DNA from: Blasia pusilla
Taxonomy: Eukaryota
Assembly (NCBI GenBank): GCA_050084515.1
Contig: CM114271.1
Location: 23,994,001-24,058,000 of the forward strand
Direction: 5' to 3'
DNA: 64,000 bases
Shown: one piece after another, positions 7,673 through 49,200 of the stretch
Layout of the letters: the number at the start of each line of letters is the position of its first letter
Position numbering within the stretch: the first letter of the stretch is position 1
Made by a program: the position numbers and the translations under genes
Notes under the pieces: model-generated
Told to the model about the DNA's origin: nothing
Databases searched by the model: none
What the model saw: only the letters and a program-made list of their open reading frames with translations

Positions 7673-7689
7673 CTCAAGGGCCAATTGGG

Positions 7690-15100: not shown

Positions 15101-18100
15101 CACACCTGTTGTGTGGCATTGCCCAGAGGAGGGTGCTAGGGTGTTAGATCTCTTTGGAGGGATTAGCACCGGATTGGCTGCACTATTGCAGGCGGGCATA
15201 CGGGTGCATCAGTACCTTTATGTGGAGAGAGATGAGATCGCGCGACGAGTATCATTACATCACATGGCGAGATTGGTCCAGAGGTATCCTGAGTTGTTGT
15301 CGGTATCTACAGTACGGGGATACCAGCATACGCTACCCGCCGACATCTCTTTGGTGGGGGCGCAGGATCTGGATAGAGTTGGCACCATTCATTTGGTGAT
15401 TCTTTGGATGGCCATGTCGGGTCATTCATCGGTGGCGAGGATTTGGATTGCAGGATCCCGGGTCGGGATGTTTTGGGAGATCTTTGCGAGTAGTACGACA
15501 ATTGCAGAGAGTCGATATGTTCTCAGTACATTTTGGAGAACGTGCCGTTGTTGGGAGACACTCGTGCACGTGTGATGACGAGTGTACATCAGGTGAGGTC
15601 CTGGTTGGGACCTGCTGTGTTGTTAGATGCAGCGAGAGTTGGGTCACGTGCCCATCATCCATGACTGTGGTGGACGAACCTGATACCATTAGAGGTAGTG
15701 AGTGGAGCATACAATGGAGTCCAGAGAGCACCACATCTCACAGTGGATGCTATTTTGGGCTCAGGGCGTTGATCTCAGGTGGTGACACGCGATGATAGAC
15801 CACCGTTGGCCACGGCCAATAGGGTGGGGGAGTTGAGGGCAGCCTTACCTATGTTGGTGAGCTTCCCAGCATCCCAAGCCTTACGTCAGGGAGGGCCAGG
15901 CATGATTTGGGATGAGGTGACCGGAGCATTGGAGGAGCCTACAGCAGATGAGCGCAAGCGCACCATGGGGTTCACTACCGGTACTACGGCGGTGCCAGGG
16001 ATGACTGAGGCATCACGGAGACAGGTGTTGGGGCAGGCGATGGACCTCAACTGTCTCACATGGATACTCAGCCTAGGTATGGCTGAGCAGAGACGGATGC
16101 GAGTGTCATCCATGCCGTCACATCCACGAGTTGGACCATTTCCTACAAGGTATGTACAGGCATTGGTTGGGGGCGAGACGAGGAGAGATAGGCACCCATA
16201 GACTTCCTGGGACGTCGTTCGAGCAGAGAGTGTGAAGGTGGCTAGATTAGCACATGTTCCTTTTTCGGATGTCAAGCATGGTGTAGGAGGTCAGAGTGGA
16301 GTGGCTGTTGCGAAGGTGGCTAGGGTTGCTACATAGCAACCAAAGCCGGAGGTTGCGTCCTCTCCGAGTGAGGTCACAATGGAGACTTGGGAGCCTGTGA
16401 CAGGTCTCAAGTTGATAGGAGGAGAGCGACGGCAAGTTCACAGGTTTCAAAGAGGGCATGTCAGTTGTTTTGCCTTCATTATGAGAGACTTGGGTACGCT
16501 GAAGGGTCCGGGATACGGATTGAGTTGGCTAGTGATACGCCGATCTTTCGTCGACCCTACAGGTATTTTGATATGGAGCGAGCCTTGATTGAGTGAGTCG
16601 GGGACTTTTGGAGGCGGGACTTGTGGAGTTATCACATGGGGAGTATGCATCCGCCCACGATCATGCCGGCGAAGAAGGAAATGTATGGCAATTGGACGAA
16701 TAGGCGGATGTGTGGAGATTACCGTCCTATCAACCGACAGACGAGGTCAGATCGGTATGCCATGCCTACTCCTGAGGAGATCTTTGATGCGGTAGGGCAT
16801 GCAAAGATCTTCAGTACTTTAGATCTCCGTGTTGGCTATCATTAGCTTCCTATCAGGTTGGAGGACAGGGAGAAGGGGATAGATCGGTTCGGGAGAGATT
16901 GCTTGTATTAGTGGCGGTTCTTACCATTTGGGTTGAAGAACGCGCCTGCGGAGTTTCAGAGAGTGATGGATAGGATTCGGTGGCTTGGATTTTGTGCGAT
17001 GTTACATAGATGATATTCTTATCTTGATTCCACGGTTGAGGAGCATGAGCGACACTTGAGGAGGTGTTTCGGCGATTGCAGTTACATGGACTGAAGTTAC
17101 ATCCAGGCAAGTGCAGATTCTTTCAAGAGCAGATTGAGTACTTGGGACACACCATATACCCGAGTGGGTTAGGCGTTCAGCAGACGAAGGTAGAGGCTAT
17201 TACGCAGATTCCACGCCCTACAGATGTGAGTCGAGTCCGAGCATTTCTTGGACTGGCGAACTTCTATCGACGGTATGTCAAGGGTTTTAGTGCGATCGCA
17301 AAGTCTTTGACCTTGTTGATGAGACTTGATCAGGTTTGGTTGTAGGGAGATGATCAGGAGCGAGCATTTCAGGAGCTCAAGGACAGGTTGACGTCCTCAC
17401 CCATTTTACAGAGACCGGTTAGGGGTCGCCCACTCCAGTTACATACGGATTGGAGCATGTTGGGTCTAGGAGCAGTGCTTACTCAGAGGGATGACGAGGA
17501 GAGGGAGTTCGTTGTGGCTTACGGGAGCCGATCGAACGACATTGCAGAGGCGAAGTACAGCTCCTACGAGGGAGAGTGCTTGGCTATAGTGTGGGCCGTG
17601 GCACATTTTAGGTGCTATTTAGTTGGCAACCCTTTCACACTTATCACTGATCATCAGCCGTTGAGGTGGTTGATGGAGTCCGACAAGCTTACAGGAAAGC
17701 TTGCTAGGTGGGCTCTATTACTACAGGAGTATGAGTTTGAGGTGGTTCATAGGCCAGGTCGGCTGAACCAGGATGCGGATGGGTTGAGTCGTAACCCATG
17801 TCCGAGTCAGAGAGACGACACAGGAGCTCGATGGCACGGAGAGAGTGATGAGGAGATGGTACCCGGTTGGCATGCATCTGCCTATCTTTGTTGGTCGACT
17901 ATGGCGGTCACCCCACGGTGATGACTCCAGTGGTGGGATTGGATGATGAGTCTTTGGATCCGGAGGTTAGTGAGGAGGCGACAGGTGGTCGTGACGACGT
18001 GGAGGTTGTGGAGTTCTTGCGCACTGGCGTCATTGAGAGTACAGTGAGTGCTAGGGAGCGGGATCGGATCCTAGAGAGAGTCAAGAGGTTCAGGTGGGAG

Positions 18101-19341
18101 GGGACTCACATTTTGCGGGTATGGGGAGATGGTAGGATACGAGTGGTACCTCATCCTTCCTAGCGAGCACGTGTAGTGCGACATGCCCATGAGGAGTTGG
18201 GACATTTTGGAGTAAAGCGCATTTACGCCTTACCTGTGTTGATATTGGTGGCCCGACATGCATACTAGGGTACAGCAGTCTGTGGCCAGATGTATGGTAT
18301 GTGACAGAGTGCGAGCATCCTTCAATGCTCCCACTCCGCAGTTACATCCTTTGCCGATTATGGGTTTAGGTTATCGGTGGAGTTTAGACTTTGCGGGACC
18401 TTTGCCATTGACATGGCGTCATCATAGGTACGTGTTGGTTATGGTGGAGCATTTCTCCAAGTGGATAGAGTTGGTGGCACTACCAGACAAGGTTTATGCG
18501 TTTCTAGATCGTGTGCTTAGTCACTTTGGTGCACCGGCAGAGGTGTTGACTGAACAGGGTACCGAGTTCAAGGGAGAGTTTCAGGCCTTGTATGATCAGG
18601 TGTTGATAGATCACCGCACCACGTCCAGAGATCATCCTGAGGCCTAGAGTGATGCCTATGGCCTTTGAGAACTTAGCTATTGCCCAACATAGAGATACAT
18701 TGAGGTACGCGACCATTCGTGGGGGAGGTTATCGTCCAGGGATTAGGAGGTTTCATCCTGAAGATTACGTGTATTTACAGCAGGCGGCACCCACGACGCT
18801 AGATGTCACACTGCAGGCGCCGCGATCCTACGTGTGCGCGAGGTATTACCGACCGGAGTCCTCATGTTGGAGGGACGGGATGGTATGGTTTGGAAGGATC
18901 ATGTGCGCAATTGTGCCCCTTGTCATCTTCCGAACGTAGATGGGACGGTGGATCCGAGCTTGGCAGTGGTACCTGCAGGCTTGAGGTGTATCTTGTGCGG
19001 ATCTGCGAGGGATGCAGCCACCATGTTGGTGTGTGATGGTTGTTCTCGAGGGTGGCATATGTCATGTCTGACCCCCCCCTCTTGATGTGGTACCCACGGG
19101 ACGATGGATGTGTCCGAGATGTGTATAGGGTAGTAGGTCATGTAGAGAGATGTGATATTTTCTATCTGGAGTTGGGGGGATCTAACTGCCAGCTAGGGAG
19201 GCGGTTGTGTGATCTCCATGTATATGTATGAGTTGATTTTTGTACATGTGTGGATCGACCCGTGTGTGGGGAAGATCGGTGTTGTGTGGTGTAGATGTGA
19301 CAAGCGATGTATGCTGTGTAGTGATATGTATACGCACTACA
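12125..19341 (+). mobile_element. Gy-3: DNMT3-PHD Gypsy element nested in the leader of Gy-2; TG...CA ends, CCAA TSD; gag 13809-14620, protease deleted, DNMT ~15120-16100, RT/RH ~16380-17810, IN ~18160-18930, PHD ~18985-19130
   Basis: CCAA|TGTCAC at 12121-12130 and CACTACA|CCAA at 19335-19345; RMCGDYRPIN, FSTLDL, YIDD-like RT motif, HTDWS, WSLDF; PPT at ~19195-19203. Confidence 0.85.
15120..16100 (+). pseudogene. DNMT3-like C5 methyltransferase domain of Gy-3 (frameshifted)
   Basis: RVLDLFGGISTG (motif I), YLYVERD (II), ENV (VI), ERKRTMGF and RRQVLGQAMDL (IX/X). Confidence 0.85.
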
Positions 19342-22300
19342 CCAATGTGCTTTAGATCGCCGGATTTCGTCAAGGGAGTTGGAAGTTATCAAGGATTGAA
19401 GATTTTGGTTCGTGTTCGACGGTTTTCTGATGTGGAGAGCTTGGAGTGTGGAAGCTCTCTTGAAGTTCATCCAGATTGGGTGAGAGGTTCCTATTGCTAC
19501 TTGTATTTTGATCTCATGTGAAGCTATCTGCTTGAGTGTGTGGAGCGTTGCGGATTTCTGCGTGCATGAAACTGGGCGGAAGCGCTGTCGGATTTGCAAT
19601 TCTGGAGGTGTATGGACAACAGGTTTGTCTTATTTTTAGCTCGGAGTATAGAGTTTGGTTGTAGCTGATTTTTTGTGGAGAGATAGCTATGGTGGTCAAT
19701 TGAATTTTGGTTGAAAAAGATTCAATTTTGGTTGAGGATTTGTGGAGTAATTGCTGATTGAAATTTTGCGGACTAGCTCAAGGTCAGCGGATCGAAGGGG
19801 CTGGTTGGTTGGTGACTCGTTCATTGTTGGAGACGCCTATCCCATTGGGGGCGCCCTGGTTGGGCCTCTCTCCATAGAGGAGCATGGCAAAGCATGGCGA
19901 ACGGGGCATTTCTCGAGCATTTTGAGGGTTCGAGGCAACTCGTGGTAGCTCGGGGCAAGTGGGCGTGAGAGGCGGACTAAGGAGCAAGGAGCAAGGAGCA
20001 AGCAAGCAAGCAAGCTTGCTAGCTTGGGCGTGAGGCAGTTTTTGCAGGATTTGTGATTTGAGTGTTGCATAACTGGTAACCCATCTTTGGGCTATTCTTC
20101 CTGGAAGACGCTTAACTGCTGAGTTCTTAACTATGCTAGTGTACACACTGTTGTAGCTCATTTGGTGCTATTCGGAGAGGTGTTAGGCGCCTTATGCATC
20201 TCAGGTTTTTGGTTTATGGACCTCTAGCACATAGTACGGTGTAGCCTCTCCATGCAGGTGATATTTTCAGGTGCTGCGAGTTCGATTAGCACGTCATCGA
20301 CCCGCGGCGGAGTAGCTATTGCGTTAGAATTGTGTGGTGGGTTTTGTGGATTCAGGGGGCGCCACGTTTGGTGGATTTTGTTACCTTGATTTCCATTTGC
20401 GATTGGAGGATTGTCGTTGGACTTCCTATGTTTGGATCCCCTCCATCGTTGCTTCTTGCTCGCGCGCCCATTGTTAGGGTTGACGCTGATTCCCAGAGTA
20501 GTGTTACTCCTGTGTGCTACCAAAGAGTGAGGTGGAGTGATGACCGATGAGACCGTGGGAGGCTTCTTGTGGTGATGACAGGTTAGGTTGCCCACACCCA
20601 TAGCTAGTAGAGCTAGAATAGTATAGCGACATCGACGTCACTTGGTTACTTAGTGGTGATAATTTGGTGGTGGTGCGGCATCGGCGTTGGTCATCACGGA
20701 GCTATCGGATGGTGTGGTTGGGGACCGTGGTGCGGACAATGGTGGTTTCACACGGAGTAGAAAAGGTAGTTGTACACACGGAGTCATGTACGGTTACCTT
20801 TTCCACTTCCGACGGTTGATGAAGAGGAGGACGATGGCGTTCCAAACACCGAGTCTTCTACCTTGTTATCGAGTGTTGCAACTCCATTGATTTGGGACAT
20901 GGACGGGATATATGGGGCCATGAAGGGCCCACGATGATACTCGGGTGCAGTGGGCACCATTGAGTTGGAGGACTTCATGCAGGAGTTTGATACATGGTGT
21001 GATATGCAAATATTGCGGAACGCCACGTTGTTTACATCCTTCTTGGCTTGGAAGGGGTTGTTTCAGCACTTGGAGGGACCACCCATGGATGATTACCATG
21101 AGTTTAGGAAGGACCATGTTGCTGAGATTGAGGCGTGGAGACAATATTGGTCTCCAGGCTATGTGTCTATCACCCATGGTGGTATTGGTAGTAGTGCTCC
21201 TACTATGCCAGCCAGCCCGACGTTGAGTGGTACGAGTACGAGCCGGAGTGGGGGTACCAGTGGAGGTACCCATGGAGGTACCAGTGGGGGTACTAGTGGA
21301 GGTACTAGTGCCCCACCATCGTTCAGCCCAGTTGCAGAGTTCTTCAAGAGGTTGAAGAAGAACTATCAGGGAGTGAAGATAGAGAAGTTGAGGAGTCTTC
21401 AAGAATTTGAGCGGAAGACTGGTGAGAGTCTTCGTGAGGCATACACTCGTATGCGATGCTTGATTTCAGTTACCGAGGGTGTGACTGAGGCTCAGGTAGT
21501 CCAGTTTTGGTATGGGATCTTGGACAAAGAGTTGCGCCGCAGGGTAAGTGATGCTACTCTTATGAGTGATGATTCACCCACATTGACCCATGTGTTTGCT
21601 TTATCTGAGAAGATTGAGCTTAACATGGTGAAGGAGAGAGTGGTGACATCCGTGATTCAAGAGGGGATACAACTACTACTTCTCGTGTGTTCAGCACCCC
21701 ACCTCACAGTCTCGTAGTAGTGGTGGTGGTAGTAGTAGTGGGAGTCGTGGGGGGTACACACGACCTTGGTCAGGTCCTAGAGGGACACTTGCGCAGAGAC
21801 CATTGCATTCATTTGCTGCCATGCAGCAAGGACAGTCATGTTGGACATGTGGAGGTGATCATGTTAGGAAGTTTTGTCCCCAAGAGGATGGAAGACGGAC
21901 TTTGGAGGATGGGCCTCAGTCAGCCCCAACTCAGTGTGATCATTGCGGGAGACCAGGTCATCCTCGAGAGCGTTGCTTTGATCTTCATCCACAGTTGAGA
22001 TCAGGCCGCGGCCGTGGTGGAGTAGCTCCGAGAGGCTGAGGTGGTAGGGGTGGTAGAGGTGGACCAATGGTTGGAGAGCCTACGGTGGCTACCCCTACCA
22101 CTACGACAAAGTCAGCTATGGCTGCCAGGATTGAGCAGTTGGAGCAAAAGTTGGCTACTATGGCTGGTATCCAGCATAGATCAGGTTCGGGAGCAAGGGC
22201 TTCCACCTCTTATGGAGGGGATGATCTCTCTTATATGGCGAGTGCAGCACAGGTTGAGGCATTAGGTGTAGTTACGAGAGGAGCCACTCGAGCGTCAGAG

Positions 22301-23580
22301 CCACGTGGTGCTACTGTGGAGTTGGACCCACAGAGGGGTGAGGCAAGCTAGGCTTCCCCAGTCATTCTTGCTGTCTGAAGTGCTTAGGACTCCATCCATG
22401 GTTCCTACGCAGCCTATTGAGCCGATAGTGGGGACTGAGGCATATACATCGCGTGTAGTAGACACGGATGTAACATCCAGTGCAGTATTGCGGATGGCAA
22501 CTTCAGTGTTGGGATCCCCATTGTTTTCAGCCACGGAGCTGATGGCTTTAGGAGTTAACTTAGCTCCTGTATTTCAGCTAGCAGCCACGTTGTGTGAACG
22601 TGGGGGTTATTCTTACTACACGTCTTTGAGGTGGATGAGGGTGTTGCGGTGGAGCGACCCTCTATGTCAGTGTAGCATTGAGTACCGGTGCTACTTTGGC
22701 AGGCAAAGCGGCGGCGAAGATGGATCGATACCCGCCCGGCCAGCCATTGATCGTGAGAGGCTTACACTGGTGTATGTATGTTGGACAACCGAGTGGGATA
22801 TTCTGATTGGTGAGTCCTACAGGACAGGTGTATAGACCAGATAGAGTCTTGTTAGACTCTGGTGCCCAACCTTTGATGTTGGGAAAGGCGGCATGTATTG
22901 GTTTGGGTATTCGGAGGTCAGAGCTTGAGCCTTGCCCATTCCAGATTCAAACATCACTTGGAGGAGCCAATGATAGGTCTCAATTCATGACACGGGAGAA
23001 GTTTTCTATACAGTCTAGACCAGATCATGCGACTGATAGCTCCCGGTTGGGAGTATCTATGGTAGTCACATCAGCCGAGTCGTATGATGTACTAGTTGGA
23101 GGAGCAGTATTGTACCCGATGGGTTTTCAGATGGATTACTGGACTGAGACAACGTCTTATAGACCTGGTTGGTAGTCCGGGGATGGACGTATGAGCCAAG
23201 TTCCCGTGAGATTTATTTATGGGGCTCGACCAGGAGGGTCTTCCCCAACAGTGTTAGCATCTGTGGCTGGTTTTAGTGGAGTAGTCACTTGGCCAGGAGA
23301 CTTTTTGGAGGGTAATGTTTCTGCTATGGATTCTCCTGTGCATGAGGAGGTAGAGGAGGTCCCTATTTTTGCAGTAGTGGCATCCTCATCGTTGGATATG
23401 CCACTTTGGAGTTCAGGCGGTGCACTACGGCAGGAGGCTGATCGCCTAGTGCAGGAGGCTTGGTGTGAGGCTGTTATACCTCACGAGGAAGAGGAGGCCC
23501 CACGACGGACTCCTACTTCTGGTCCAGTTGGGTTATCTTCTTTGGATACTACACCCATTGTATGGCAGTATCCGCCGGAG

Positions 23581-24550
23581 GGCATTTGTGTGTTAGATCT
23601 CTTCGGTGGGATTAGCATTGGTTTGGCTGTAGTGTTGCAGGCCGGTATTCTGTCTTGGAGATACGTGTATGTGGAGCGAGATGAGACGGCCGAAGAGAGT
23701 CTCATCCCGACATATTGGTCGATTCTTTGTGGAGATATCCTGAGTTGTTGCCGCCATCAGCTATTTGTGGGTACCAGCGTGCTTTGCCGTCACACATTGC
23801 ATTGTTGGGGGCGCAGGACCTTGAGAGGGTTGGTCCTTTGGATTTGGTGATTGCTGGATGGCCATGTCAGGGTCATAGACGTGCAGGTCGTGGTGAGGGA
23901 TTACACGACCCTAGGTCTCGATTGTTTTGGGAGATGTTACGGAAGTTACGACATCTTCAGGTTCATCAGGCACGTGCTCCAGCTTACATTTTGGAGAATG
24001 TTCCATTGTTGGGTGACACTCGGACCCGGATGATGGCAAGTATTCATGAGGTGCGGTCTTGGATTGGACCAGCGGTGTTGTTGGATGCATTGCGAGTTGG
24101 CTGGCGTGCACATCGTCCACGCTTGTGGTGGACAAACTTGTTGCCTAGGGAGGTTCTACGTCGAGGATATGATGCAGTGCAGCGGGATCCTTGCCTTACA
24201 GTGGATAGTATCTTGGATACTGGGCGAATTTCTCAGGTGGTGAGGGTTATTGATCGGTCACCCATTGTAGTGGTGAACCGTGTGGGCTAGCCTAGGATGG
24301 CACTACCCACATTTGTGAGTTTTCCCTCGTCACATGCATACAGGGAAGGTGGTCCCGGGCTTGTATGGGATTCTCATGTGCGGCGAGTTGGTGGAGCCTA
24401 ACGCGATGAGAGAGAGCGTGCGATGGGATTTGCTCGTGGTGTGGCGGTTGCTTCCATTTCTGAGGCTTCACGACGTCATGTGTTGGGTCAGGCCATGGAC
24501 CTGAATTGTTTGACTTGGATTTTGAGTCTTGGTATGGCCGAGCAGCGTCG
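23581..24550 (+). pseudogene. DNMT3-like C5 methyltransferase domain of Gy-2 (best-preserved copy)
   Basis: VLDLFGGI (I, 23590), GPLDLVIAGWPCQG (IV, catalytic C at 23865), YILENV (VI), AHRPRLWWTNL (VIII), ERAMGF, RRHVLGQAMDL (X); DNMT3-type wording of motifs VIII-X. Confidence 0.9.
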
Positions 24551-26689
24551 ACTTTGGACTATGTCTGTGGATCTTCCACCCCTTGTAATGAGCTCGATGG
24601 CTATCGGGACGGTAGAGGCATCGGCCGGGGGCGAGGAGAGTAGTATTTTGCATCCTTGGAGTAAATGGGATGTAATGGCTGGGCATGTGGAGTTGGTTGC
24701 TCATGCTGGTGGAGGAGTTATTTGCTCAAATGAAAGTGTAGCTAAGGGTGTACCATCTTTAAGGGGGTTGCGTAGCAGCCAATGGCATCTTCCTCTCCCT
24801 CTAGTGTGCCAATGGAGGAGACTTGGGAGCCATTACTTGGGCTCAAGCTTACGGGAGGTGAGAAACGACGCTTGACACAGTTCCTACGTGCTTATAGGAG
24901 TTGTTTTGCCTTTAGCATGAAGGAGTTGGGTTCTCTGGTTGGACCCGGTATACGGATTGATTTGGCTAGTGATACGCCAATCTTCCGTCGTCCCTACCGA
25001 TATAGTGATATGGAGAGGGACCTGATTCAGAGTAGGACGTTGGACCTTTTGGAGGCTGGATTAGTGGAGTTGTCGCATGGAGAGTATGCATCAGCCACTT
25101 TCATGCCTGCTAAAAAGGATATGCATGGCAACTACACGGATAGGCGGATGTGTGGAGATTACCGTCCTATCAATCGGCAAACCAAGGCCGATAGGTATGC
25201 CATGCCTACACCTGAGGAGATCTTTGATGTGGTGGGACAGGCAAAGATTTTCAGTACTTTGGATCTTTGGCGAGATACCATCAATTGCCGATTCGGAGAG
25301 TGACAAGGCCAAGACAATGCATTTTGGGGTGTCAACTCTCATGGCAAGGATTGTTTGTACGGTGGAAATTCTTACCCTTTGGGTTGAAGAATGCACTGCC
25401 GAGTTTCAAAGAGTGATGGGCGGGATCCTAGCAGGTTGGATTTTGTTCGGTGTTACATTGATGATATCTTGGTGTTCAAGAACACGGTGGAGGAGCATCG
25501 ATACATTTGCAGATGGTGTTTGAGCGGTTGAAAGCTCATGGTCTACGTTTGCATCAGGAAAGTGTAAGTTCTTCCATGAGGATGTTGAGTACTTGGGTCA
25601 TGTGATCTATCCAGGTGGTTTGGGAGTTCAAAGCAAGCAAAGGTGGAGGCTATTGCACTTATTCGCGTCCGGTAGATGTGAGTAGAGTTCGAGCATTCAT
25701 GGGATTGGCGAACTACTATCGGAGGTATGTGAAGGGATTTAGTGCTATGGCAAAGCCTTTGAACCAATTGCTGAAATCAGATCAAGAGTGGCTTTGGGGA
25801 GATGATCGGGAGAGAGCTTTTGGGGAGCTTAAGGCCTAGTTGGTGGCGGCGCCTATCTTGAGGAGACCTATCGAGGGCGCCATTTCAGATTACACACCGA
25901 TTGGAGTAGGTTGGGACTTGAGCGGTGTTGACACAACATGATGATGAGCACATGGAGTTTGTGGTGGCCTATGCAAGTCGTTCGAATAATGCAATGAGTC
26001 GCGCTATAGTTCATATGAGGGAGAGTGCTTGGCAAGAGTGTGGGTTGTGGCACACTTTAGGTGTTACTTGTTTGGCACACAGATTTACCCTTGTTATTGA
26101 TCACCGGCCGCTCAAGTGGTTGATGGAGTCGGACAAGCTTACGGGGAAGCTTGCACGGTGGGCTCTTATCTTACAGAGTATGACTTCCGGGTGGTACATA
26201 GACCTGGAGTTGCCAACCTTGATCTTTGATGGGTTGAGTAGGAACCCATGTACTAGCCAAGAGGATACAACTGGGGCTAGATGGCATGGCGAGGTTGATG
26301 AGGAGATGGTGCCAGGTTGGCATGCATCCGCCTTTTTATGTTGGTTAGGGGTGGACTCTAGTATGGAGGACCACATGATATCTTACTCTAGTCAGAGGGT
26401 AGATGGCCAGCCTTCAGATCCTAAGGTTGGAGATGGTGGCACGGATCAGCGTGATATTCATGATGATGCGTTGGTGTTGGAGTTCCTACGGACCAGTAGG
26501 GTGCCAGGCATAGTGAGTGCCAAGGAGCGAGACCGTGTTCTTCAACGTGCTAAGAGGTATCGATTGGAGGGAACACATATTATCCGCATGTGGGAGGATG
26601 GTAGAGTACGAGTAGTGCCACATTTGGCTCAGAGAGAGCACATTGTGCGACATGCCCATGAGGAGTTGGGACATTTTGGGGTAAAGCGT

Positions 26690-27263
26690 ACGTATAGCTT
26701 ACTCCTTGGCGATATTGGTGGCGTGGCATGCATACTCAGTGCAGTAGATTGGTGTCACGTTGTATGGTTTGTGACCGGGTGAGGGCATCATTTAATGCCC
26801 CTACACCAAAATTACACCCCTTGCCTATTATGGGGTTGGGTTACCGTTGGAGTGTGGACTTTGCGGGACCGTTACCATTGACTGTACGACATCATCGATA
26901 TGTGTTGGTGATGGTGGAGCACTTCTCCAAGTGGATTGAGTTGGTGGCATTACCGGACAAGGCAAGTGAGGGAACGGCGTATGCGTTTCTGGATAGAGTG
27001 CTTAGTCATTTTGGTGCACCAGCTGAAGTGCTGACCGACCAGGGTGAGTTTCAGGGTGAGTTTCGTTCGTCCTATAGCTTACTCCTTGGTCAGTATTGGT
27101 GGTGTGGCATGCATACTCAGGTGCAGCAGTTGGTGTCATGTTGTATGGTTTGTGACCGGGTGAGGGTATCATTCAATGCCCCTACACCAAAATTACACCC
27201 CTTGCCTATTATGGGGTTGGGTTACCGTTGGAGTGTGGACTTTGCGGGACCGTTACCGTTGAC
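26690..27263 (+). repeat. Internal duplication of ~190 bp of integrase (26690-26885 repeated at ~27070-27263)
   Basis: YSLLLG...MHTQ...CDRVR.SFNAPTPKLHPLPIMGLGYRWSVDFAGPLPLT occurs twice, ~380 bp apart. Confidence 0.85.
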
Positions 27264-27264
27264 C

Positions 27265-29644
27265 GGAGGTGCGGGAAGAGGAGAGGAAGAGAGGAAGAGA
27301 GGAGAGAGGAGAGAGGAAACTACCTTCAACCAAAATAGATACTTTTTTTTTAAGAGAGTTTCCGTTGGGTTGAAGAGAGGAAAGTTTTTGTGTGAATTTT
27401 TTTGCACTTTTTTGTTCATTTATTAAGCAGTCCCATAGTTTTTTTTTCCTCTTCCATATTTTGGCAACTCCTCTGAGTCCGACAAGTTGCAAATTGCACA
27501 AAATTTAGAAAACTGAAAAATCAGTGGAATCATAAGTGTGGAACCAATCACTTTTTCCATCCAAGGTCTGGAAAAAATCTATCATTTGCCCCGGGCTGAA
27601 TAGAGTTCAAGCTCAAAGTGAAGGTTCAAGAAAAATAAAAGTACAATCTAAAACTTCATTTTGCATCCTCAAAGTGGTTTGTTTAAAATACTTCGCACTT
27701 CTTTGAGGGACAGAATTGGTTGGTGGATTCCTACTCCTACCTCCGACTCTCTTAAAACTACTAGCAACACATAGTATATGTGCTTACAAGGGAAGTACCT
27801 TTTGCCACTTGTCTCTCTTTGGACAAAGTCATCACATGAACATGTGGGAAAGCAAAAGATGTGCACCACATACACCCCTGTGACACTTGAATTTACAGTG
27901 TTGTTCCTAACCCAATACATCCTTCCTATTCCATTGCCACTCAAGACATCTTTCGTGGCGATGATCTCCATTTTTTCCTCCCGAGCTGATGCAATTAGCT
28001 TTGCTCTCTCCACCGTTGGCCTACACATTTTGTTTCTCTTCACCCCATTTCTAGACTCAAACAGAAATAGTGGATTGAGATCATCCACCTTCTCCGGGTA
28101 CATGTTGACATTAATCTTGGGTTGAATACGAAATGCGAAGGTCTTTGTAATGCGAACATGCTCCGAACTTCCCCCGTCTACGAGTGTGAAACCGGCACTT
28201 GTAAGATTGTCCACTTCGTCTTGAGTGCAGTTCGTACCTGCGGCGATGGGCCAAATCGTGGGGGTATTCCTCAGAGCTCCAATGGCAACCGGATAAGACT
28301 TTCGGAAAGCGCAAGATTCATTTGGGCGGAAGAAGTACTTCAATTTATCCTCGGTCCTCGTGAAACGATCAAAGGTTTTGAGTCCCCAAAACCCAGTCAG
28401 TGGTCGTCCAGTCCTTGTACGGTTCTTATTTAGGAAAGTGCCGCATGCTCTCCTAATGCCATCAAATCCTGCCCTGCAGGTGGGTCCATGTCCTGGGTTG
28501 CTCCAAGATATATGCCACCGTTTGAGGTTGCAATCCACCTCCATTACCGTAATCCCATATTGTTGAACCACCCCACCGACCGGATGTTGCGAACTTCCAG
28601 CAACGGAGGGCTTTTGAAATAAAACATTCACTGATTTTGGAGAAGTAACTCCATCACAGATTTGGGACGGGTCTGGGGTCCCCGAATACGTGGGCGGCGT
28701 ACTTTCCTCATCCAAATCAATCACTGGATTAGTTCCTCGATGCTGCCTCTTCACCTGCCTGAAGTCAATATACTTATCTGGTCTCCACGAGTCTCGCTCG
28801 GACTGCTCTACCACCATCTGTATGGGACATCTTGAAACCCGCCCACGAATGTCCCCACCAATGTGTACATCTTGCTCGAGGGGAGTTCCAGCTACGCACC
28901 GGTTGAAGGCTTCCACGTACATTTTTTCATCACCAGATCTCACAGCAGCCCTGACATAGAGCTCGTAGATCGACGGCCCCCTTCCTTTTGTTACGCCTTT
29001 TATGAGGAAGATATGGGATGCTGCACACTGTAGCATTGCTCTTGCCTGGTCTTGTTGGCATGCCTCCACAAGTGAAATTCTTTGGCATGCTTGTGACGAT
29101 CTCTAGGAGGAATGAACACTTTCTGCTCCACTTGTGTTGGGGCAGAGGGCATTTTCATGAATGTTCAATCCCTGCAACGACGACAATGTTAGAAGGGAAC
29201 AAAAATAACTCAGCAGTCAAAGACATAAGCTACCTGTCGGAACCAGACGGGTTGCAAGGCCGAGGCATCCCATGAACAACTCTGCGACCCGTCGGGTCCC
29301 GACGTGTTGCAACCCTAAACCCACCTACTGCAACCCATCGGATTCAGACGGGTTGCAAGGCCGAGGCATCCCTTGAACGACTCTGCGACCCGTCGGTTTC
29401 CGTCGGGTTGCACACTCGGATTTGACCAAAATTCTGGATGCAACCCGTCGGTTTTCGTCGGGTTGCACACTCGGGCAACCCGTCGCATCCGAATGCTTGC
29501 TTGGTTTCTTCGGTTTGAAATCCCCATAGTTCCCACGCTTCTCAACTTGAGCTGCAACTTTACAAACAATTCTCAACGTGAGCTTGACAAGACAAAATAG
29601 TGAACTCACCTTCCGCATGAAGTTTCCCCATTGTCTCATACGTA
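27265..29644 (-). mobile_element. MULE-like DNA transposon, end carrying the transposase C-terminus (catalytic E, SWIM finger); intron 29609-29172
   Basis: VRMRQWGNFMRK / GLNIHENALCPNTSGAESVHSS* ... CSCDDF...YFPCKHIYYVLL (SWIM CxCxnCxH); GT-AG intron; terminus next to the target duplication CCGTTGAC(C). Confidence 0.8.
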
Positions 29645-29647
29645 CAG

Positions 29648-29728
29648 AAGTGGGAAAACTCACAAACGTGGGAAAGCGCAGACCCTTGTTACCACAGTCA
29701 ACGGTGGTCGATCATCGTGCCTCACTGC
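29648..29728 (-). mobile_element. Short Gypsy DNMT piece belonging to Gy-5, separated by the inversion
   Basis: VRHDDRPPLTVV...FPTFVSFPTS continues into YKEAGPGLVWDDQ at 44688. Confidence 0.75.
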
Positions 29729-29729
29729 C

Positions 29730-32700
29730 AGCCAGATCGTGCAGCAATATCTATATATGGAGATTGATGATGTTGCGAGGCGCGCTTCACTTCACCATGT
29801 GGCGCTATCACGCCTCCATTTTCTCGACTTGTTGTGTGCGTCCGCCATTCAGGGTTACCAGAGTTCCCTACCGAGGGACATTTCATTGTTGGGGGCGTAG
29901 GACTTGGAGCAGGTAGGGACCATAGACTTGGTCATTGCTGGTTGGCCGTGTCAGGGCCAATCGAGTGTTGGACGAGATAGCGGGTTAGCTCACACTCGGT
30001 CCAGGTTGTTTTTGGAGATGATGCCGGATCTTGCAACCTTTACATGAGCATCACTCTCGTTCTCCAACATACATTTTGGAAAATGTGCCAATTTTGGGCG
30101 ATTCGAGGTCCCGTGTGGTGACGAGTGCACATCAGGTGCGCGCATGGATCGGCCCAACACATGGATCGGCCCAACAGTGTTGTTAGATGCGGCGAGTGTG
30201 GGTTCATGAGCACATTGCCCGCGTCTTTGGTGGACCAACTTGGTACCACATGAGGTATTGCGGAGGGCTTATGCAAGAGTGGAGCGTCCCTCCAATTTGT
30301 TGGTGGATTCTATATTGGATCCGGGCCGTCGATCACAGGTAGTGAGGCACAATGATTGACCATCGTTGACTGTGGTCAACAAGATTGGCATACCACGAGC
30401 CACCTTTCCCATATTGGTGAGTTTTCCCGCTTCCTATGCATTTAAGGAGGCCGGATTTGGCTTGGTTTGGGATGACCAGGTATAGAGGTTGGTGGAGCCC
30501 AACGCCGATGAGCGAGAGCGAGCAATGGGATTCCCCACAAGAGTGACGGCAATAGCGTCACTATCGGAGGTAGCACGACGTCATGTCTTGGGTCAGGCGA
30601 TGGACCTAAACTACTTGACATGGATTTTCAGCTTAGGAGTAGTTGAGCAACGTTGTTTGAGGATGCGACATATCACAGTTGTTGCGTTGGTGAGCCCCAT
30701 GCCTACCGAGACGGTTGAGGCAGTGGATAGGGTCGAGACTCGAGGAGATTGACACACCAGGAGTGATCGGGAGAGACATCCTTGGACTTCTTGGGATGTT
30801 TTGCATCTCGCTCAATGTACACCAGGAGATGATAGCCACAACATTGAGCGTGGTTCCGGGTATTGCACATGGAGATGAGAGTTATGTTGTTCGAGACAGG
30901 GTTGCACCATAGCAACCACCGGCATCCGTGCCGAAGAGTCCTATTGTAGTCACGATGGAGACTTGGGAGCCAAATATGGGCCCTGAGTTGACAAGAGGAG
31001 AGCAGCGTTGGAAACACCAATTCCTTAGGAGTTATAGAAGCTGTTTTGCATTTAGTATCCATGATTTGGGTACGCTGAAGGGTCCAGGGATCCGCATTGA
31101 GTTGTCGAGTGACACGCCGATCTTCCGACGATCCGAAAGATACAGTGACATGGAGAGGGCTCTCACTCAAAGTAGGAGCTAGGACTTGCTTGGAGCAGGA
31201 CTAGTGGAGATGTCGCATGGAGAGTATGCATCTGCCACTATCATGCCCACCAAGAAGGATGTGCATGGCAACTGGACGGATAGGCGAATGTGTGGAGATT
31301 ACGGACCTATCAATTGGTAGACAAAGTCCAATAGGTATGCCATGCCCACTCCTGAGGAGATCTTTGATACGATTGGGCATGCAAATGTCTTCAGTTCATT
31401 GGATTTGTGAGCCGGATACCATCAATTGCCTATCAGATTGGAGGATAGGCAACAAACGGTATTTTGGGGCATCGATCCTCACGGGAAGGATTTTTTGTAC
31501 CAATGGCGGATCTTACCATTTGGGTTAAAGAACGCCCCGTCTGAATTTCAAAGGGTCATGGATAGGATCTTGGCAGGTCTGCATTTTGCTAGGTGTTATA
31601 TTGATGACATCGTAGTCTCTAGCGCCACGGTTGAGGAGCATGAGCGACATCTAGAGGAGGTGTTTCGACGATTGCAATAACATGGGCTGAAGCTACATCT
31701 AGGCAAGTGCAAATTCTTCTACGACAAGATTGATTATTTGGGTCATACGATATATCTTGGGGGCCTTGGTGTGCAGCAAGCGAAGGTAGAGGCTATTTCA
31801 CGCATTCCACGCCCTACAGATGTGAGTCGAGTTCGTGCATTCATGGGATTGGCAAACTTCTATCGATGGTACGTCAAGGGTTTCAGTTTGATTGCAAAGC
31901 CGGTAACCTTGATGACCAAGGTGGATCAGGAATGGCATTGGGGGGATGAGCAAGAGAGAGCATTTTAGATGCTCAAGGAAGAATTGACGTCCGCACCCAT
32001 ATTGAGGAGACCGATCACGGGACGTCCTTTCCAATTACATACTGATTGGAGCATGTTGGGGCTTGGAGCTATGCTTACTCAACATGATGATGATGGTAGA
32101 GAGTTTGTGGTGGCTTATGCTAGTCGCTCGAATAATGTTGTAGAGGTGAAGTATAGCTCGTATGAGGGTGAGTGCTTGGTTGTAATGTGGGCTGTCGCAC
32201 ATTTCAGATGTTATCTATTCGGCAATCCCTTTACCATCATTACTGATCTTCAGCCACTTAAGTGGTTGATAGAGTCCGACAAGCTTATAGGGAAGCTTGC
32301 GAGATGGGCTCTTTTGTTGCAAGATTATGACTTCCAGGTGGTGCATAGACCTGGGATGCTCAACTAGAATGCAGATGGTTTGAGACGTAATCCATGCTCG
32401 AGTCAGCGAGATGCGACTAGAGCTCGTTGGCATGGTGAGATTGATGAGGAGTTGGTGCCAAGATGGCGTGCGTCAACCTATTTGGGCTTGTTGGCTATGG
32501 AAAGCCAAATTACTGAGACTTCGATGGCGAGGTCTAATGGAGAGTCCTTAGATGCAGAGGCTAGTGAGGAGACAACAGGTGGCCGAGACATTCACGACGA
32601 TGGAGTAGTCTTGGAGTACCTGCGTACTAGCAGCGTCGCGAGCGCAATAGGTGCTAGAGAGCGGGATCGGATCCTACAACAAGCCAAAGAGTTCCGGTGG

Positions 32701-33409: not shown

Positions 33410-34530
33410 TCTTGGGTGCACGAATCAGAAGGCCGGGTGCTAGGTTGCCCCATCGTTAGTCGCATATCTGTAATCCATATCATGCAAAGATCAAGTCATC
33501 TACCTCTCCTAAGTACATCGAGGATAAACCCACCTTCCAGCAGGAACAACATCCATACGTGGAGTCAAATACATCATGTGCCAACCCCTAGAACACCGAT
33601 CACACACCAACATACGGGCTGCGTTACCAGCAGACCCACACAACATGCACCTCAAGCTAGCACGTATCATGGCTAAGCTTGGGTCAACAGTACCATCCAC
33701 ATTTGGAAGATGACATGGCGCACAATTACGCACATGGTCCTTCCAAACAACTCCATCACAATCCTCCAACATAAGAACTCCATAAGATAACACCTCGCAC
33801 ACTCGTAAAAAGTAGTGCGGTGTGCCATCATATCCAACGTTGTCTGTGCAATCTGCTGCAAATAGACATAGTCCCCCACATGGAACCTATGAATTGATGG
33901 TCGATAACCTCCACCCCGAATGGTTGCATACCGCAACGTATCCCTATGTTGAGCAATGGCAAGATTCTCAAAGGCTGTTGGCATAACTCTCCGAAAGAGC
34001 TCTTCCCGCTGAGAACACACTCTCATCCACATCTCTGGGTCATCAAGGTTCACCACCTCACTAGACTCCCGACAAATTGCTGCTGGCAAGTCTGGATCTC
34101 GGCCGTATAACAGAAAATAAGGTGAGAAGGAAGCCAAGGATGCTTGGCGACTGAACCTATACCCTATGGCTAACCATGGCAACTGAATATCCCAATCTCC
34201 AAGATGCCCCTTCTGTAGGCCATACTTGCGCAATGCCCTCTTCACCATCTGAACCACACGCTCAGCCAAACCATCCGCCTCTGGATGATCTCGAGATGTG
34301 GTCCAATGATCAATCAACGCCTTGTCACACAAGACCTGAAACTCACCCTGAAACTCTGTACCCTGGTCGGTCAGCACTTGAGCTGGTGCACCAAAATGAC
34401 TAAGCACTCTATCAAGAAACGCATACGTCGTTCCCTCACTTGCCTTGTCACGTAATGCCACCAACTCAATCCACTTGGAGAAGTGCACCACCATCACCAA
34501 CACATATCAATGATGTCGTACAGTCAACGG
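33410..34530 (-). mobile_element. Gy-2 integrase C-terminal half, SH3-like tail and PHD finger (inverted relative to its 5' half)
   Basis: Resumes exactly at PLTVRHH..VLVMV; LTDQG...GLAER; CMLCGSAGNAARMLVCDRCSRGWHM...WVYPRC. Confidence 0.9.
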
Positions 34531-44687: not shown

Positions 44688-46232
44688 TACAAGGAGGCTG
44701 GTCCTGGCTTGGTTTGGGATGACCAGGTTCAGAGGTTGGTGGCCCAACGCCAACAAGAGAGAGCGGGCGATGGTATTTCCCCCAGGAGTGACGGCAGTCC
44801 CGTTAGTATCAGAGGCATCACGACGCCATGTCTTGGGTCAGGGGATGGACTTGAACTGTTTAACATGGATCCTCATCTTGGGAGTGGCTGAGCAGCGTCG
44901 TATGAGATCACGACAGAGTACATCGGTTGCGTTGGTGAGCCCCATGCCTACCGAGATGGTGGAGGCAGTGGTTGGGGGCGAGACCTGAGAAGATCTACGC
45001 ACCAGGGGAGATCGGAAGAGACACCCTTGGACTTCTCGGGATGTTTCGCAGGTACTCTAGGAGATGATAGCCACATCATTGAGCGTGGTTCTGGGCACTG
45101 CACGTGGAGGAGATCAGAGTTTGCAGTTGGCTGCAGGAGAGCGGCAGAGTGTTGTTGTTCAAGATGGGGTTACATCATAGCAACCACCAATACCCGCGCC
45201 GTAGAGTCCTACCGTAGTCACGATGGAGACTTGGGAGCCAGATATGGATCCTAAGTTGACAAGAGGAGAGCGGCGCCAAATACATCAGTTCCCCAGGAGT
45301 TATAGGAGCAGCTTTGCATTTAGCATGGAGGATTTGGGTACGCTGAAGGGACCGGGGATCCGCATTGAGTTATCGAGTGATACGCCGATCTTCAGACGAC
45401 CCTACAGGTACAATGATATGGAGAGGGCTGTGATTCAAAGTAGGAGCCAGGACTTGGTCGGAGCAGGACAAGTGGAGATGTCGCATGGGGAGTATGCATT
45501 TGCCACTGTCATGCCCGCCCAGAAGGATGTGCATGGCAACTGGACAGAGAGGCGGATGTGTGGGGATTACTGACCTATCAATCGGCAGACAAAGTCCAAT
45601 AGGTATGCCATGCCCACCCTTGAGGAGATCTTTGATGCGATTGGTCACGCAAAGGTCTTCAATTCATTAAATTTGTGAGCCGGATATCATCAACTACCTT
45701 TCAGATTGGAGGACAGGCAGAAGACGGCATTTTGGGGCATCGATCCTCACGGGAAGGATTGTTTGTACCAATGGTGGTTCTTACCATTTGGGTTAAAGAA
45801 CGCCCCGGCTGAGTTTCAGAGGATCATGGATAGGATCTTGGTGGTCTGGATTTTGCTAGGTGTTATATTGATGACATCGTAGTCTTTAGCGCCACGGTTG
45901 AGGAGCATGAGCGATATCTAGAGGAGGTGTTTCGACGATTGCAATTCTATGGGTTGAAGCTACATCCAGCCAAGTGCAAGTTCTTCTACGACCAGATTGA
46001 GTACTTGGGTCATACGATATACCCAGCGGGCCTTGGTGTTCAGAAGACAAAGGTAGAGGCTATCTCACGCATTCCACGCCCTACAGATGTAAGCCGTGTT
46101 TGCGCATTCATAGGATTGCCAAACTTCTATCGGCGGTACGTCAAGGGATTTAGTTCGATTGCAAAGCCGCTGACCTTGCTGACCAAGGTGGATCACGAGT
46201 GGCACTGGGGAATGAGCAGGAGCGAGCATTTC
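44688..46232 (+). mobile_element. Gy-5 fragment: DNMT C-terminus and RT
   Basis: ERAMVF, RRHVLGQGMDL, RMCGDY, LPFGLKNAP, YIDD, YLGH. Confidence 0.88.
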
Positions 46233-46241
46233 ATGCTCGCT

Positions 46242-49200
46242 ACGTAACACTGCATGGGGCACCAAGTTATTCCACCATAGACACGCGCGATGGGCTCTAG
46301 AACCTACACTCGCCGCATCCATGAACACTGCTGGGTTGATCCAGGCACGCACCTGATGAGCACTCGTCACCACCCGTGACCTAGAGTCTCTTAAAATTGG
46401 CATATTCTCTAGAATGTAGGGTGGAGAACGAGATTGGTGCTCTTGCAACTGCCGTAAGACCCTCAACATCTCCCAAAATAACCTCGAACGAGTATCAGCC
46501 AATCCATTGACTCGTCCAGCACTCAATTGGCCTTGACATGGCCAACCGGCAATGACCAAATCAATGGTGCCTAACCGCTCTAAGTCCTATACCCCTAGCA
46601 ACAAAATATCCCTCGGTAGGGAACATTGGTACCCTTGTACCGCGGACGCATACAATAAGTCGGGAAAATGTAGGCGTAATTGAGCCACATGTTGTAGGGA
46701 GACGCACTTTGCAACATCATCACTCTCCACATACAGGTACTGCTACACTCGCTTTCTTGCCTACAAAATAGTAGCTAACCCGGTGCTAATCCCTCCAAAG
46801 AGATCTACCACTCGAGTACCCTCCTCCGGCATACACCACACAATGGGTGTAGTATCCAAGGATGTCATCGTCGCACTCCTTGCTACCTCAGGTTCCTCAG
46901 ACCCATCACGATGCGGTGCAAACGCCTCGCTCCACGCGGTCTTTACGTGTTCATCTGCCAATCGTCGAAGCTCCTCAGTCGAGCCCCACAATGGCACCTC
47001 TCCTCCACGGAATGATGCGGCTACCATAACACTCCTCTTCATAGAAATGTCAAGAATGGGAGTATCCTCTGCATGGACATGTCCCTCAATCAAATCACTA
47101 GGCCAAGTGATGGCACTCCTAAATGCTGCTAAGGTCGCCACCTCTCCTAGCCGTCGCTCGATCACTGCACCTATGAATCAAATAGGTAATGAGCTAAGGT
47201 GCCCATCACCTCACTGCCATCGTGGTTTGTAGGATGCTGACTCCTCCCAATAATCCAGGGAAAACCCCATCAGGTATAACACTGCTCCACCAACCAAGAC
47301 GTCATAGGACTCTGCATCAGTCACTATCGCCTTGGCTCGCACCACGGACTCATCTGTAGGACGTCTTGGGCGAATCTTCACCATGACCTCCTATCGGGTG
47401 ATATACTGTGTGGTACTCGCTCCACCCAAGGATGTTTGTATCCGGAATGGACAACGCTCCACTTCGGCTCTCGTCAAGCCCAATCCTTTGAATGACGCTT
47501 TCCCCAACATCAGGGTTGCGCTCCTGAATCCAACAAGACACGCTGCGGACTAAAAGCTCTATCTCTGGGACTCACCAATTGGAAGACCTCTCCTCAATTA
47601 TCCAACAACACAAAACCAGGAGAAGCCATGGCATGGTCTATCGCGGGTCTAGCGGGCATCTCCGCCATTCTAGCAACCGCAGCCTACCATGAATCTGACA
47701 TGGACGGCCCTAGCATCCGCTCCAAGGGCAGGTCCATCGCCTCCTCTGCAATCACCTTTGAACGTGATGCAAGAACTCCAACTCCACGCTCACATAGCGT
47801 AGCGGCTAGCCAAAAAGCCCCAGCAGGCGTACCTCCCAATGTCATAACATCGGAAGCATTAAATAAAGGAGCGCGGTACACAATGGTGGCCGCCCCCAAC
47901 AACGTGCTCGACACATGCCCCTACTGAGCATTAACAATAGGAGTCGTCGCACTCGCTTCTCCCATTGCCCTCCATGCGTGCACACCAACAACATCACCAA
48001 CTCTCCAGGAACTCTGATCAGGACCCATCGATGGGGTCCTCATCGCCTCGGACAACGTGAAAGACTCAAGAAGCTTAATTTGTTTCCTAGCTTCCCCTCG
48101 CTGTGGATCCAACTCTGCGGCTGCTCCACGCGTCACAATTACGGCTGCCTCCATCTGGGCAACCCCGTACATCCAACCAGGTTCCTCCATATCTCTGGCT
48201 GCTCCATATGATGTCGATGCCACGGATCCGACATCCACTAACCTCAATGCCATAGCGACAATTTGCTCTTGTAGCTGTTGTATCTAAGCAGCCATCCCAG
48301 CCTCACGTTGGGCCTCTCCCTCGATGCATCTAGGTGGGACTCTACCTCCTCCACGGGCAGCTCCACCACCCTGTCAGACAACTCCAGCTCCTCATCCCCC
48401 AACGGGACCACCTTGTGCACGATCTCTAGGCCCACCCAGACCGGCTACTCGCTCTGGTGCCCTCTCTTGCCCTCGGTCCGGACGTAACTCAGGATGTACA
48501 CTGAAACACCTGGCGCGTGTATGACCATACATCTGAAAATAGTCACACTGATAACCTCCTTGTGGAGCACCATCTCCTCCTCCATGTTGAGGCACACGTC
48601 CATGACCCTGACGAGTGCAATCGCGCTGATGATGGGCTCCACCACATGACCAACAAGTAATAGTAGGCGGCTTCTACTGAGCCGCATATGAAGGCGCAGG
48701 TCTCTGTGGCACGGCCCCCCGGTATCCTCCCTGAGCTCATGGTGCCACAGTCGACCTATCTCAGAGTCCACGTTGTTGCATAGGTGGTGCAGACAATCGT
48801 GACTGCTCTCGCCCAGAACGCATGGTGGCTGCGCTCTCCTCCGCCATATTGCGCTCAATGTTCTTGGAGGTCCTGAAATCATCCCTCAACCTAGGGCAGG
48901 TGTTCATAAGAAGCACCCCCTCCCGCACCCGTGACCGTAGGGTCCGATCCAACATGGCGTACCATGACTGGATAGCCTGAGCCTCCGTCATCCCTTGAGT
49001 GATGTTGATCAACCGGCGCAAGCAAGTGTAAGCATCACACAAACTCTCACCCGAGCACCTCTGGAAATCGTGGATGCTCCGCAACTTCTCCATCCGTACC
49101 CCCTGGTAGCTCGCCCTCAACTCATCGAAGAACTTAACCACAAAGTTGAACCTGGGACGAACCCGACTAGACGGTGTAACATCACTAGTGGAAGAGGAAG

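Follow-up and report, generated by a model that had tools for sequence, protein, structure and literature searches.

The stretch analysed here is 64,000 nucleotides of Blasia pusilla DNA (assembly GCA_050084515.1, contig CM114271.1, positions 23,994,001 to 24,058,000 of the forward strand), called the window below and numbered from its first letter. It very probably contains the decayed remains, at least eight fragments in number, of one old and diverse Ty3/Gypsy retrotransposon family, whose members would encode Gag, an aspartic protease (PR) and a cytosine-C5 methyltransferase (MTase) of the DNMT3 type ahead of a leaky stop codon, and reverse transcriptase (RT), RNase H (RH), integrase (INT) and a PHD finger behind it. 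Five of the fragments, A to E, carry the C5-MTase domain (DNMT below) in the same place, after the protease and before RT, when aligned by tblastn with two annotated Marchantia polymorpha proteins that served as rulers, P0002 (Gag-PR-DNMT, 1278 aa) and P0006 (PR-DNMT-RT-RNase H). All five are collinear with these proteins, in agreement with the shared position claimed in a preliminary description made from the sequence alone. That description placed the domain at 15120-46830, where it does lie, but the elements reach further, with copy A beginning at 13878 and piece E extending to 49492. The pieces and their main parts are as follows.

13878..19100, + strand: copy A, degenerate (tblastn with P0002 and P0006)
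15096..16090, + strand: DNMT domain of copy A (motif scan, frame reading)
20899..27426, + strand: copy B, the most complete, nearly full length, degenerate (Pfam, tblastn)
23545..24557, + strand: DNMT domain of copy B (motif scan, Pfam)
29685..32738, + strand: copy C, 5'-truncated inside DNMT (from ruler residue 886), then RT and RNase H (tblastn)
44688..46233, + strand: piece D, C-terminal part of DNMT (from ruler residue 1132), junction stop and RT (tblastn)
46230..49492, - strand: piece E, gag, protease and N-terminal part of DNMT (ruler residues 9-1076; tblastn)
7688..11954, - strand: two 3' fragments of the same family with RNase H, integrase and PHD finger, in which no DNMT part is present (self-blastn, tblastn)
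33225..34530, - strand: 3' fragment of the same family with integrase core and PHD finger (self-blastn, Pfam, tblastn)

The Ty3/Gypsy domain order PR-RT-RNase H-integrase is present, with a Ty3-type RNase H and an H2C2 integrase zinc domain (Pfam, tblastn). Copy A runs from the N-terminal part of gag through DNMT, RT, RNase H and integrase to the PHD finger, with an internal deletion of ruler residues 255-721, which correspond to the C-terminal part of gag and the protease. Copy B has gag, protease, DNMT, RT, RNase H and integrase. The CCHC zinc knuckle is readable in its gag frame, and the CCHC residues (C334, C337, H342 and C347) are invariant in 13 ORF1 proteins (ORF, open reading frame) of the family. 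The integrase of copy B is partly duplicated and is truncated at about 27426; at about 26900-27426 (+) some 60 residues of the integrase N-terminal region are tandemly doubled, and unrelated sequence follows directly. D (+) and E (-) abut head to head at 46228-46236. Their contents are complementary apart from a gap of about 55 residues, and they have the appearance of a single element divided by an inversion; the junction may be a real inversion or an assembly join.

DNA identity among the window copies is 64-89% (self-blastn). Stops among ruler-aligned codons number 6 of 763 in A, 6 of 1213 in B, 4 of 356 in C, 0 of 116 in D and 12 of 1023 in E, and frame changes can be read in A, B, and C. 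Stops, frameshifts, truncations, and one inversion have left every one of the five pieces dead. The preliminary description proposed that such a lineage persisted in this plant; the window does not show the persistence of an active one. Since only dead copies are present, the value of the window itself is as a pointer to the family. Inverted and direct duplications are also present (11587-11954 with 33227-32860, 9042-9842 with 32654-31854, and 32754-32860 with 33230-33336); their identity of 90-97% is well above that of the element copies to each other, which points to later segmental rearrangement of already dead fragments.

The methyltransferase domain

A six-frame scan of the window located motif I as LDLFGG at 15144(+) and 23593(+) and as VDLFGG at 46808(-), motif IV as GWPCQ at 23856(+), 29940(+), and 46547(-), ERAMGF at 24414 and 30516, and RRHVLG at 24471, 30576, and 44821. 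Two other matches, GRPCQ at 47709(-) and RRHQLG at 25851(-), lie outside any MTase alignment and were rejected as chance pattern matches. The DNMT of copy B is the most readable, with motifs I, IV, VI, VIII, IX, and X all recognizable despite two stops and one frame change between I and IV. Motifs I, VI, VIII, IX, and X are readable in copy A, with motif IV out of frame. Copy C is without motif I owing to its 5' truncation and has ENV in a different frame, piece D contains only the C-terminal 116 residues of the domain, and piece E has ENM in place of ENV and is without the C-terminal part. The motifs I to X reported earlier across the pieces are therefore present by the scan, but no single piece has all of them in one frame. 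PF00145 scores 29.9 bits in copy B (with stops read as X), 35.6 in P0002, and 51.1 in the open relative L027, against a cut-off of 22.

The C5-methyltransferase motifs I, IV (PCQ), VI (ENV), VIII, and X follow one another in canonical, non-permuted order, unlike those of DRM. In 11 sequences spanning both architectures described below, there is no variation in the catalytic Pro-Cys-Gln, in Glu-Asn of motif VI, or in Gly-Gln-x-Met-Asp of motif X, with the Val of motif VI at 90% or more, and PCQ and ENV are both invariant in the 13 ORF1 proteins, so the catalytic residues suggested earlier to be retained are retained in the family. In searches of the PDB with a window fragment, DNMT3A/B/C made up 29 of 30 matches (best 7.7e-08). 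With a family profile built from 11 members, the top 29 of 51 matches were DNMT3A/B/C (1.7e-21 to 7.9e-17), followed at lower ranks by plant DRM (7e-09 to 1e-07), M.HhaI (6e-07), and DNMT2 (2e-05); no DNMT1 or CMT was found at E <= 0.001 in this profile search. An AlphaFold model of the open L027 domain has a pLDDT of 76 and a pTM of 0.81, with low confidence in the catalytic loop (103-118) and in region 228-267, and the rows of a Foldseek search with this model that were listed up to rank 50 are all DNMT3 chains (E 7e-17, target TM 0.73-0.77). Matches in a protein atlas were to generic C5-methylase clusters only, one eukaryotic (Streptophyta commonest) and two viral. Judged by sequence and model, the domain is DNMT3-like, as described previously, and a non-permuted C5-MTase, an assignment based on PDB profile and fold ranking.

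Selection was estimated by the Nei-Gojobori method on codons aligned through the ruler protein. For the window DNMTs, pN is 0.15-0.32 versus a pS of 0.40-0.77, and dN/dS is 0.13-0.30 in the six of nine pairs with computable dS. The least saturated pairs are C-D at 0.30 (bootstrap 0.17-0.51) and C-E at 0.26 (0.14-0.39), and RT-RH of the window copies gives 0.18-0.31. The DNMTs of open relatives yield cleaner estimates: 0.14 for L027-L044 (dS 0.26), 0.12 for L027-L039, and 0.11 for L039-L044. None of these is near 1, in keeping with the selection proposed earlier for the diverged copies. Columns invariant in the family are retained at 75-91% in the dead copies versus 43-66% for other columns. 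Because dN/dS is low and the invariant columns are retained, the sequences indicate that the lineages of these copies diverged under constraint on the methyltransferase and that each copy decayed after insertion.

The junction stop and the PHD finger

Between DNMT and RT, all four window copies that cover the junction have the sequence TAG-CAR-YYA at the homologous site, 12-15 codons ahead of the start of the RT region.

16334..16342, + strand: junction stop of copy A, TAG CAA CCA, sharing its frame with DNMT motif X and the RT start
24773..24781, + strand: junction stop of copy B, TAG CAG CCA, homologous site
30910..30918, + strand: junction stop of copy C, TAG CAA CCA, homologous site
45178..45186, + strand: junction stop of piece D, TAG CAA CCA, in frame with DNMT and RT

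These four account for four of the seven TAGCARYYA matches on both strands of the whole window. DNMT, TAG, and RT share one common frame in A and D, and a frame change lies between them in B and C.

The same layout is found in open relatives. In L027, an open ORF1 of 1369 aa and an open ORF2 of 1047 aa lie in one frame, separated by TAG CAG TTA. Pfam places the aspartic protease at residues 708-763 of ORF1 and DNA_methylase from residue 940, while ORF2 contains, in order, RVT_1 (106.5 bits), RNase H (RT_RNaseH, 131.5), Integrase_H2C2 (64), rve (51.9), and a C-terminal PHD finger. L039 is similar, with TAG CAA TCA and a 1047-aa ORF2, and in L006 TAG CAA CCA is followed by 766 aa; together with L044, these three have the full TAG-CAR-YYA match. 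An RT start is present in 43 of 63 related metagenome loci. In 33 of these 43, a stop with CAR-YYN directly behind it lies upstream at a fixed distance of 14 or 21 codons, and the remaining 10 have a different upstream stop or none. The 33 junctions are TAG CAA CCC (17), TAA CAA CCC (10), TAG CAG TTA (2), TAG CAA TCA (2), TAG CAA CCA (1), and TAG CAA CCT (1). The ends of the annotated Marchantia ORF1 proteins P0002, P0003, P0010, P0011, and P0012 correspond to the stop site: they come about 96-98 residues past motif X, or at the shared C-terminal tail in proteins in which the pattern of this motif was not detected; many metagenome proteins also end at the matching place past motif X.

UAG_CAR_YYA is given as the type-I readthrough consensus of plant viruses (PMC3542737), and an in-frame stop between gag and pol has been called rare among LTR (long terminal repeat) retrotransposons (PMC3441728). 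Since the conserved TAG-CAR-YYA stands right after DNMT, ORF1 is, on sequence grounds, Gag-PR-DNMT with DNMT as its last domain, and RT is predicted to be reached only by readthrough of the stop. The uninterrupted PR-DNMT-RT frame considered in the preliminary description was found in none of the sequences, even in open relatives, as TAG-CAR-YYA closes ORF1 after DNMT. The tail between motif X and the junction stop is about 100-135 residues long (L027:4765-5082; in the window, for example, 16091-16333), has no Pfam match, and is poorly conserved between subfamilies; it might hold a protease cleavage site or serve as a spacer.

The second unusual module is found at the end of the integrase.

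18987..19082, + strand: PHD finger at the integrase C-terminus of copy A (PF00628, 27.7 bits, cut-off 24; tblastn with the L027 ORF2 C-terminus)

The finger that closes L027 ORF2 reaches 40.6 bits with PF00628, and tblastn detects a PHD finger or its remnant in four window fragments, copy A and three others. Among solved structures, the closest PHD fingers belong to CHD4, PHF12, PHF21A, KDM5, KAT6A, ATXR5, UHRF1, and AIRE. Most of this group recognize H3 tails that lack K4 methylation.

Relatives and known systems

A word-indexed search gave 67 homologues at E <= 0.001 among 4919 candidates, and an exhaustive search gave 1787 cluster representatives at E <= 0.001, 93 of them at E <= 1e-30. The named homologues are from the liverworts and mosses Marchantia polymorpha (17), Calypogeia fissa (2), and Sphagnum (2), and from Chromochloris (1) and Haematococcus (1); in addition, 63 metagenome loci hold a relative. 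Annotated copies occur on several Marchantia chromosomes, and the full-length Gag-PR-DNMT proteins annotated in that species differ little from each other. The domain is accordingly not restricted to the locus, a restriction named earlier as a possible refutation, and the family is a widespread, selected, DNMT3-bearing Gypsy lineage and not a local accident. No Klebsormidium sequence was found among the matches, including the 63 matches of a search with the DNMT of the other architecture.

Two architectures were distinguished when 211 proteins were sorted with domain queries cut from L027. DNMT follows Gag/PR or precedes RT in 59 proteins and lies between RNase H and integrase in 71; a further 80 are DNMT-only and one is odd. 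Proteins of the RNase H-DNMT-integrase type (P0053, P0057, P0059, and 68 others) are encoded by a single ORF, which can reach about 2000 residues or more, and usually have a PHD finger, past which several have long extra C-terminal regions; the named members are chlorophyte. The backbone is shared, with L027 ORF2 and P0057 being 43% identical over RT-RNase H and 34% over integrase-PHD.

A FastTree phylogeny of the DNMT domain was built from 113 rows, in which the first type is complete (50), the second is represented by a random 45 of its 119 members, and 16 of 41 unclassified proteins and two window fragments make up the rest, after 58 of 268 proteins with fewer than 280 domain positions covered had been removed. 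In this tree, which has SH-like support and neither outgroup nor bootstrap, a single branch (SH-like 91; 45 versus 50 rows) separates the two placements with no exception. The window fragments group with Marchantia, Calypogeia, and Sphagnum proteins in a clade of 21 rows that has full support, within which the Marchantia proteins form a tight, short-branched subclade that does not include them.

Elements of this kind are already known from KnitGypsy-Dnmt3, published in 2018 by de Mendoza et al., in which a DNMT3-type domain in a Klebsormidium nitens Gypsy element has a Ka/Ks < 0.2 and is ascribed to "the K. nitens lineage" (PMC5890265). As far as the published text describes it, KnitGypsy-Dnmt3 resembles the family studied here in having a non-rearranged, intronless DNMT3-type domain with conserved key residues within the coding region of an LTR Gypsy element, and in being under purifying selection (Ka/Ks < 0.2 there, 0.11-0.30 here). 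However, it is from a charophyte alga whereas the named relatives here include liverworts and mosses, and its DNMT is described as being "in the Pol polyprotein ORF," whereas here, in a comparison made with the published text, the domain ends the Gag-PR ORF before the stop. PHD fingers, chromodomains, and readthrough are not mentioned in the main text of PMC5890265; the figure and supplements may differ. Later texts use the wording "streptophytes (Gypsy-DNMT3)" (10.64898/2026.05.21.726589; PMC12344493), and, according to a 2019 opinion paper, land plants "such as tracheophytes" are without transposons of this sort (PMC6338049). The literature searched contained no report of a DNMT-bearing Gypsy element in liverworts or mosses, of a leaky stop, or of an integrase PHD finger in such elements, although supplements and subscription papers may hold such reports. 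The liverwort and moss relatives, the Gag-PR-DNMT ORF closed by a leaky stop of the plant-virus type, the integrase PHD finger, and the two fixed positions of the same methyltransferase on one backbone look new in relation to the literature searched.

Other elements share some of these features. The RT-RH-DNMT-INT-PHD elements of Chromochloris zofingiensis, Haematococcus lacustris, and metagenomes have the same backbone, including the linker before the PHD finger, and DNMTs 35-40% identical to the window DNMT; unlike the window family, with its protease-DNMT-RT order, they have one ORF with DNMT between RNase H and integrase. SymbioDIRS-Dnmt3 of dinoflagellates also has a DNMT3-type domain in a retrotransposon polyprotein, and this domain is reported to have de novo CG methylation activity in yeast; however, the backbone is that of a DIRS element with a tyrosine recombinase, and the authors regard the acquisition as independent (PMC5890265). 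The EpiLTR elements likewise combine a chromatin reader at the integrase C-terminus with methyltransferase domains, but their DNMT is described as sister to DNMT4 and not DNMT3, and the window family is without the adenine methyltransferase (10.64898/2026.05.21.726589). Chromoviruses also have a chromatin reader at the integrase C-terminus, although it is a chromodomain rather than a PHD finger. The catalytic domains of animal DNMT3A/3B/3C are the best sequence and fold matches and have motifs I to X in the same canonical order, but identity is only 20-22% in structural alignments, the window family has no PWWP or ADD, and its target-recognition region is longer and modelled with low confidence. 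Tobamoviruses, with their type-I leaky stop, and gammaretroviruses, with gag-pol readthrough, are similar in placing an in-frame UAG-CAR-YYA between an abundant upstream product and the polymerase (PMC3542737); the likeness lies in the sequence context, and here the putative leaky stop is that of a plant LTR retrotransposon and comes after protease and DNMT and not after Gag.

Possible function and other features of the window

Why a retrotransposon carries the enzyme that hosts use for transposon silencing has been an open question since 2018. The Marchantia Gag-PR-DNMT proteins bring this question to a land plant that is genetically tractable. From the leaky-stop layout, methyltransferase is predicted at the level of Gag and not of RT, and the PHD finger adds a testable targeting module. 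Judging from the relatives, ORF1 of an intact member would encode Gag (CCHC), aspartic protease, the DNMT3-like MTase, and a tail of about 100 residues, and would end at UAG followed by CAR-YYA, a type-I leaky context; ORF2 would encode RT, RNase H, integrase, and PHD finger. Most ribosomes would stop and yield Gag-PR-DNMT, and a few per cent would read through to yield the fusion with RT-RH-INT-PHD. This division of products is considered probable. In that case the methyltransferase would be about as abundant as Gag and would enter the particle within the Gag precursor.

The later steps are held with less confidence. The PHD finger could tether integrase to H3 tails without K4 methylation and thereby direct insertion into silent chromatin, in the manner of the chromodomains of chromoviruses, an idea suggested because most of the nearest PHD fingers read such tails; this is quite conceivable, though short of probable. 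The enzyme might methylate cDNA newly made from its own element, either ahead of integration or at that step, and thereby make the inserted copy resemble resident methylated DNA, and this step is a little more tentative again. Combined, these ideas would describe the elements as self-contained epigenetic units that both "write and read" and that are still active in bryophytes, the model liverwort among them. The leaky UAG would supply a Gag-linked DNMT3-like enzyme in excess over RT to methylate cDNA inside the particle, an integrase PHD finger of the type that reads H3 unmethylated at K4 would steer integration into silent chromatin, and the methyltransferase module would have moved once between two backbone positions in green-lineage evolution. 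That all of these parts hold together is doubtful.

Several results weigh against the interpretation as a whole or its parts. There is no intact copy within the window, so nothing here shows a working element in this genome, and no paired LTRs were found around the window copies or in L027. LTR-like direct repeats are present in two of the five relatives examined, L001 (300 nt, 94%, 8747 apart) and L046 (169 nt, 92%, 7080 apart), and flanking direct repeats are absent in L031 and L025. The stop is TAA at 10 of the 33 junctions of relatives, and CCC takes the place of YYA in these and in the 17 TAG CAA CCC sites; both variants may be decay or a weaker signal. The dN/dS values of the window come from synonymous sites that are saturated in most pairs (pS about 0.7) and from a protein-guided codon alignment that lowers dN somewhat. 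Land-plant DNMT3 is stated to carry a DUF reader domain (PMC12344493), and no Pfam match to PWWP, ADD, or land-plant DUF reader domains was found in L027 ORF1 or P0002. Finally, the only published activity test of a Gypsy-DNMT3 was negative, as the KnitGypsy-Dnmt3 domain did not produce de novo methylation in yeast; the authors call the test inconclusive because human DNMT3B failed there too (PMC5890265).

The yeast result also bears on the possibility that the domain is conserved without methylating DNA, and that it instead binds nucleic acids or has a structural role within the Gag-PR precursor, or methylates RNA. RNA methylation has been raised for a LINE-borne DNMT by the authors of the yeast study (PMC5890265), the domain is in the Gag-containing ORF, the usual place of RNA-binding functions, and the catalytic loop is one of the two regions modelled with low confidence. 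However, the catalytic motif residues are invariant across the 11 sequences and 13 ORF1 proteins, dN/dS is 0.11-0.14 in the open relatives, the RNA enzyme DNMT2 is a far poorer match than the DNMT3A/B/C proteins nearest in sequence and fold (2e-05 versus 1.7e-21), and the yeast test, in which human DNMT3B failed as well, was called inconclusive by its authors; a role of this kind is thus considered unlikely. Much the same applies to action in trans, in which the enzyme would methylate host chromatin, the target site, rival transposons, or DNA viruses rather than its own cDNA. A defence role has been proposed for transposon-borne methylases (PMC6338049), a product at the level of Gag would be abundant, and the element has a chromatin reader in its PHD finger, but an enzyme made within the Gag precursor would be kept inside particles until the precursor is cleaved, and action in trans is likewise improbable. 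That a host DNMT3 fragment was captured locally by nested insertion or rearrangement can be dismissed despite the heavily rearranged locus (the D/E inversion, truncations, and inverted duplications), as five diverged window copies and 59 of 211 proteins agree in the position of the domain and 71 more have it at a second fixed position, relatives are present in 63 metagenome loci and on several Marchantia chromosomes, and the L027 ORF1 is open across Gag-PR-DNMT (1369 aa) with no introns.

Apart from these points, the base composition of the copies is uneven. Their coding strand is G-rich and C-poor (G 30-32%, C 19-21%), with T above A except in piece D, and the observed/expected ratio of CpA is 1.44-1.49 versus 1.06-1.16 for TpG; the open relative L027 has the same G/C bias in a weaker form (G 27%, C 22%). 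The CpG ratio is 0.59-0.76 in the copies versus 0.55-0.64 in the flanks and gives no distinct methylation signature. Pfam searches of ten other window ORFs gave one rve match above cut-off and two below threshold (SWIM and RhoGAP). No Pfam match was found in the open frames at 38689-39495, 40144-40692, 41732-42256, 42668-43738, and 43618-44532, which lie near two tandem-repeat arrays with a period of about 67-74 bp (39690-40176 and 41738-42343), recognized by staggered self-matches. Between copies B and C, in an AT-richer stretch, there is an open frame of 476 aa (27669-29099, - strand) that has a sub-threshold match to the SWIM zinc finger (17.3 bits, cut-off 19.6) and a single database homologue with 30% identity.

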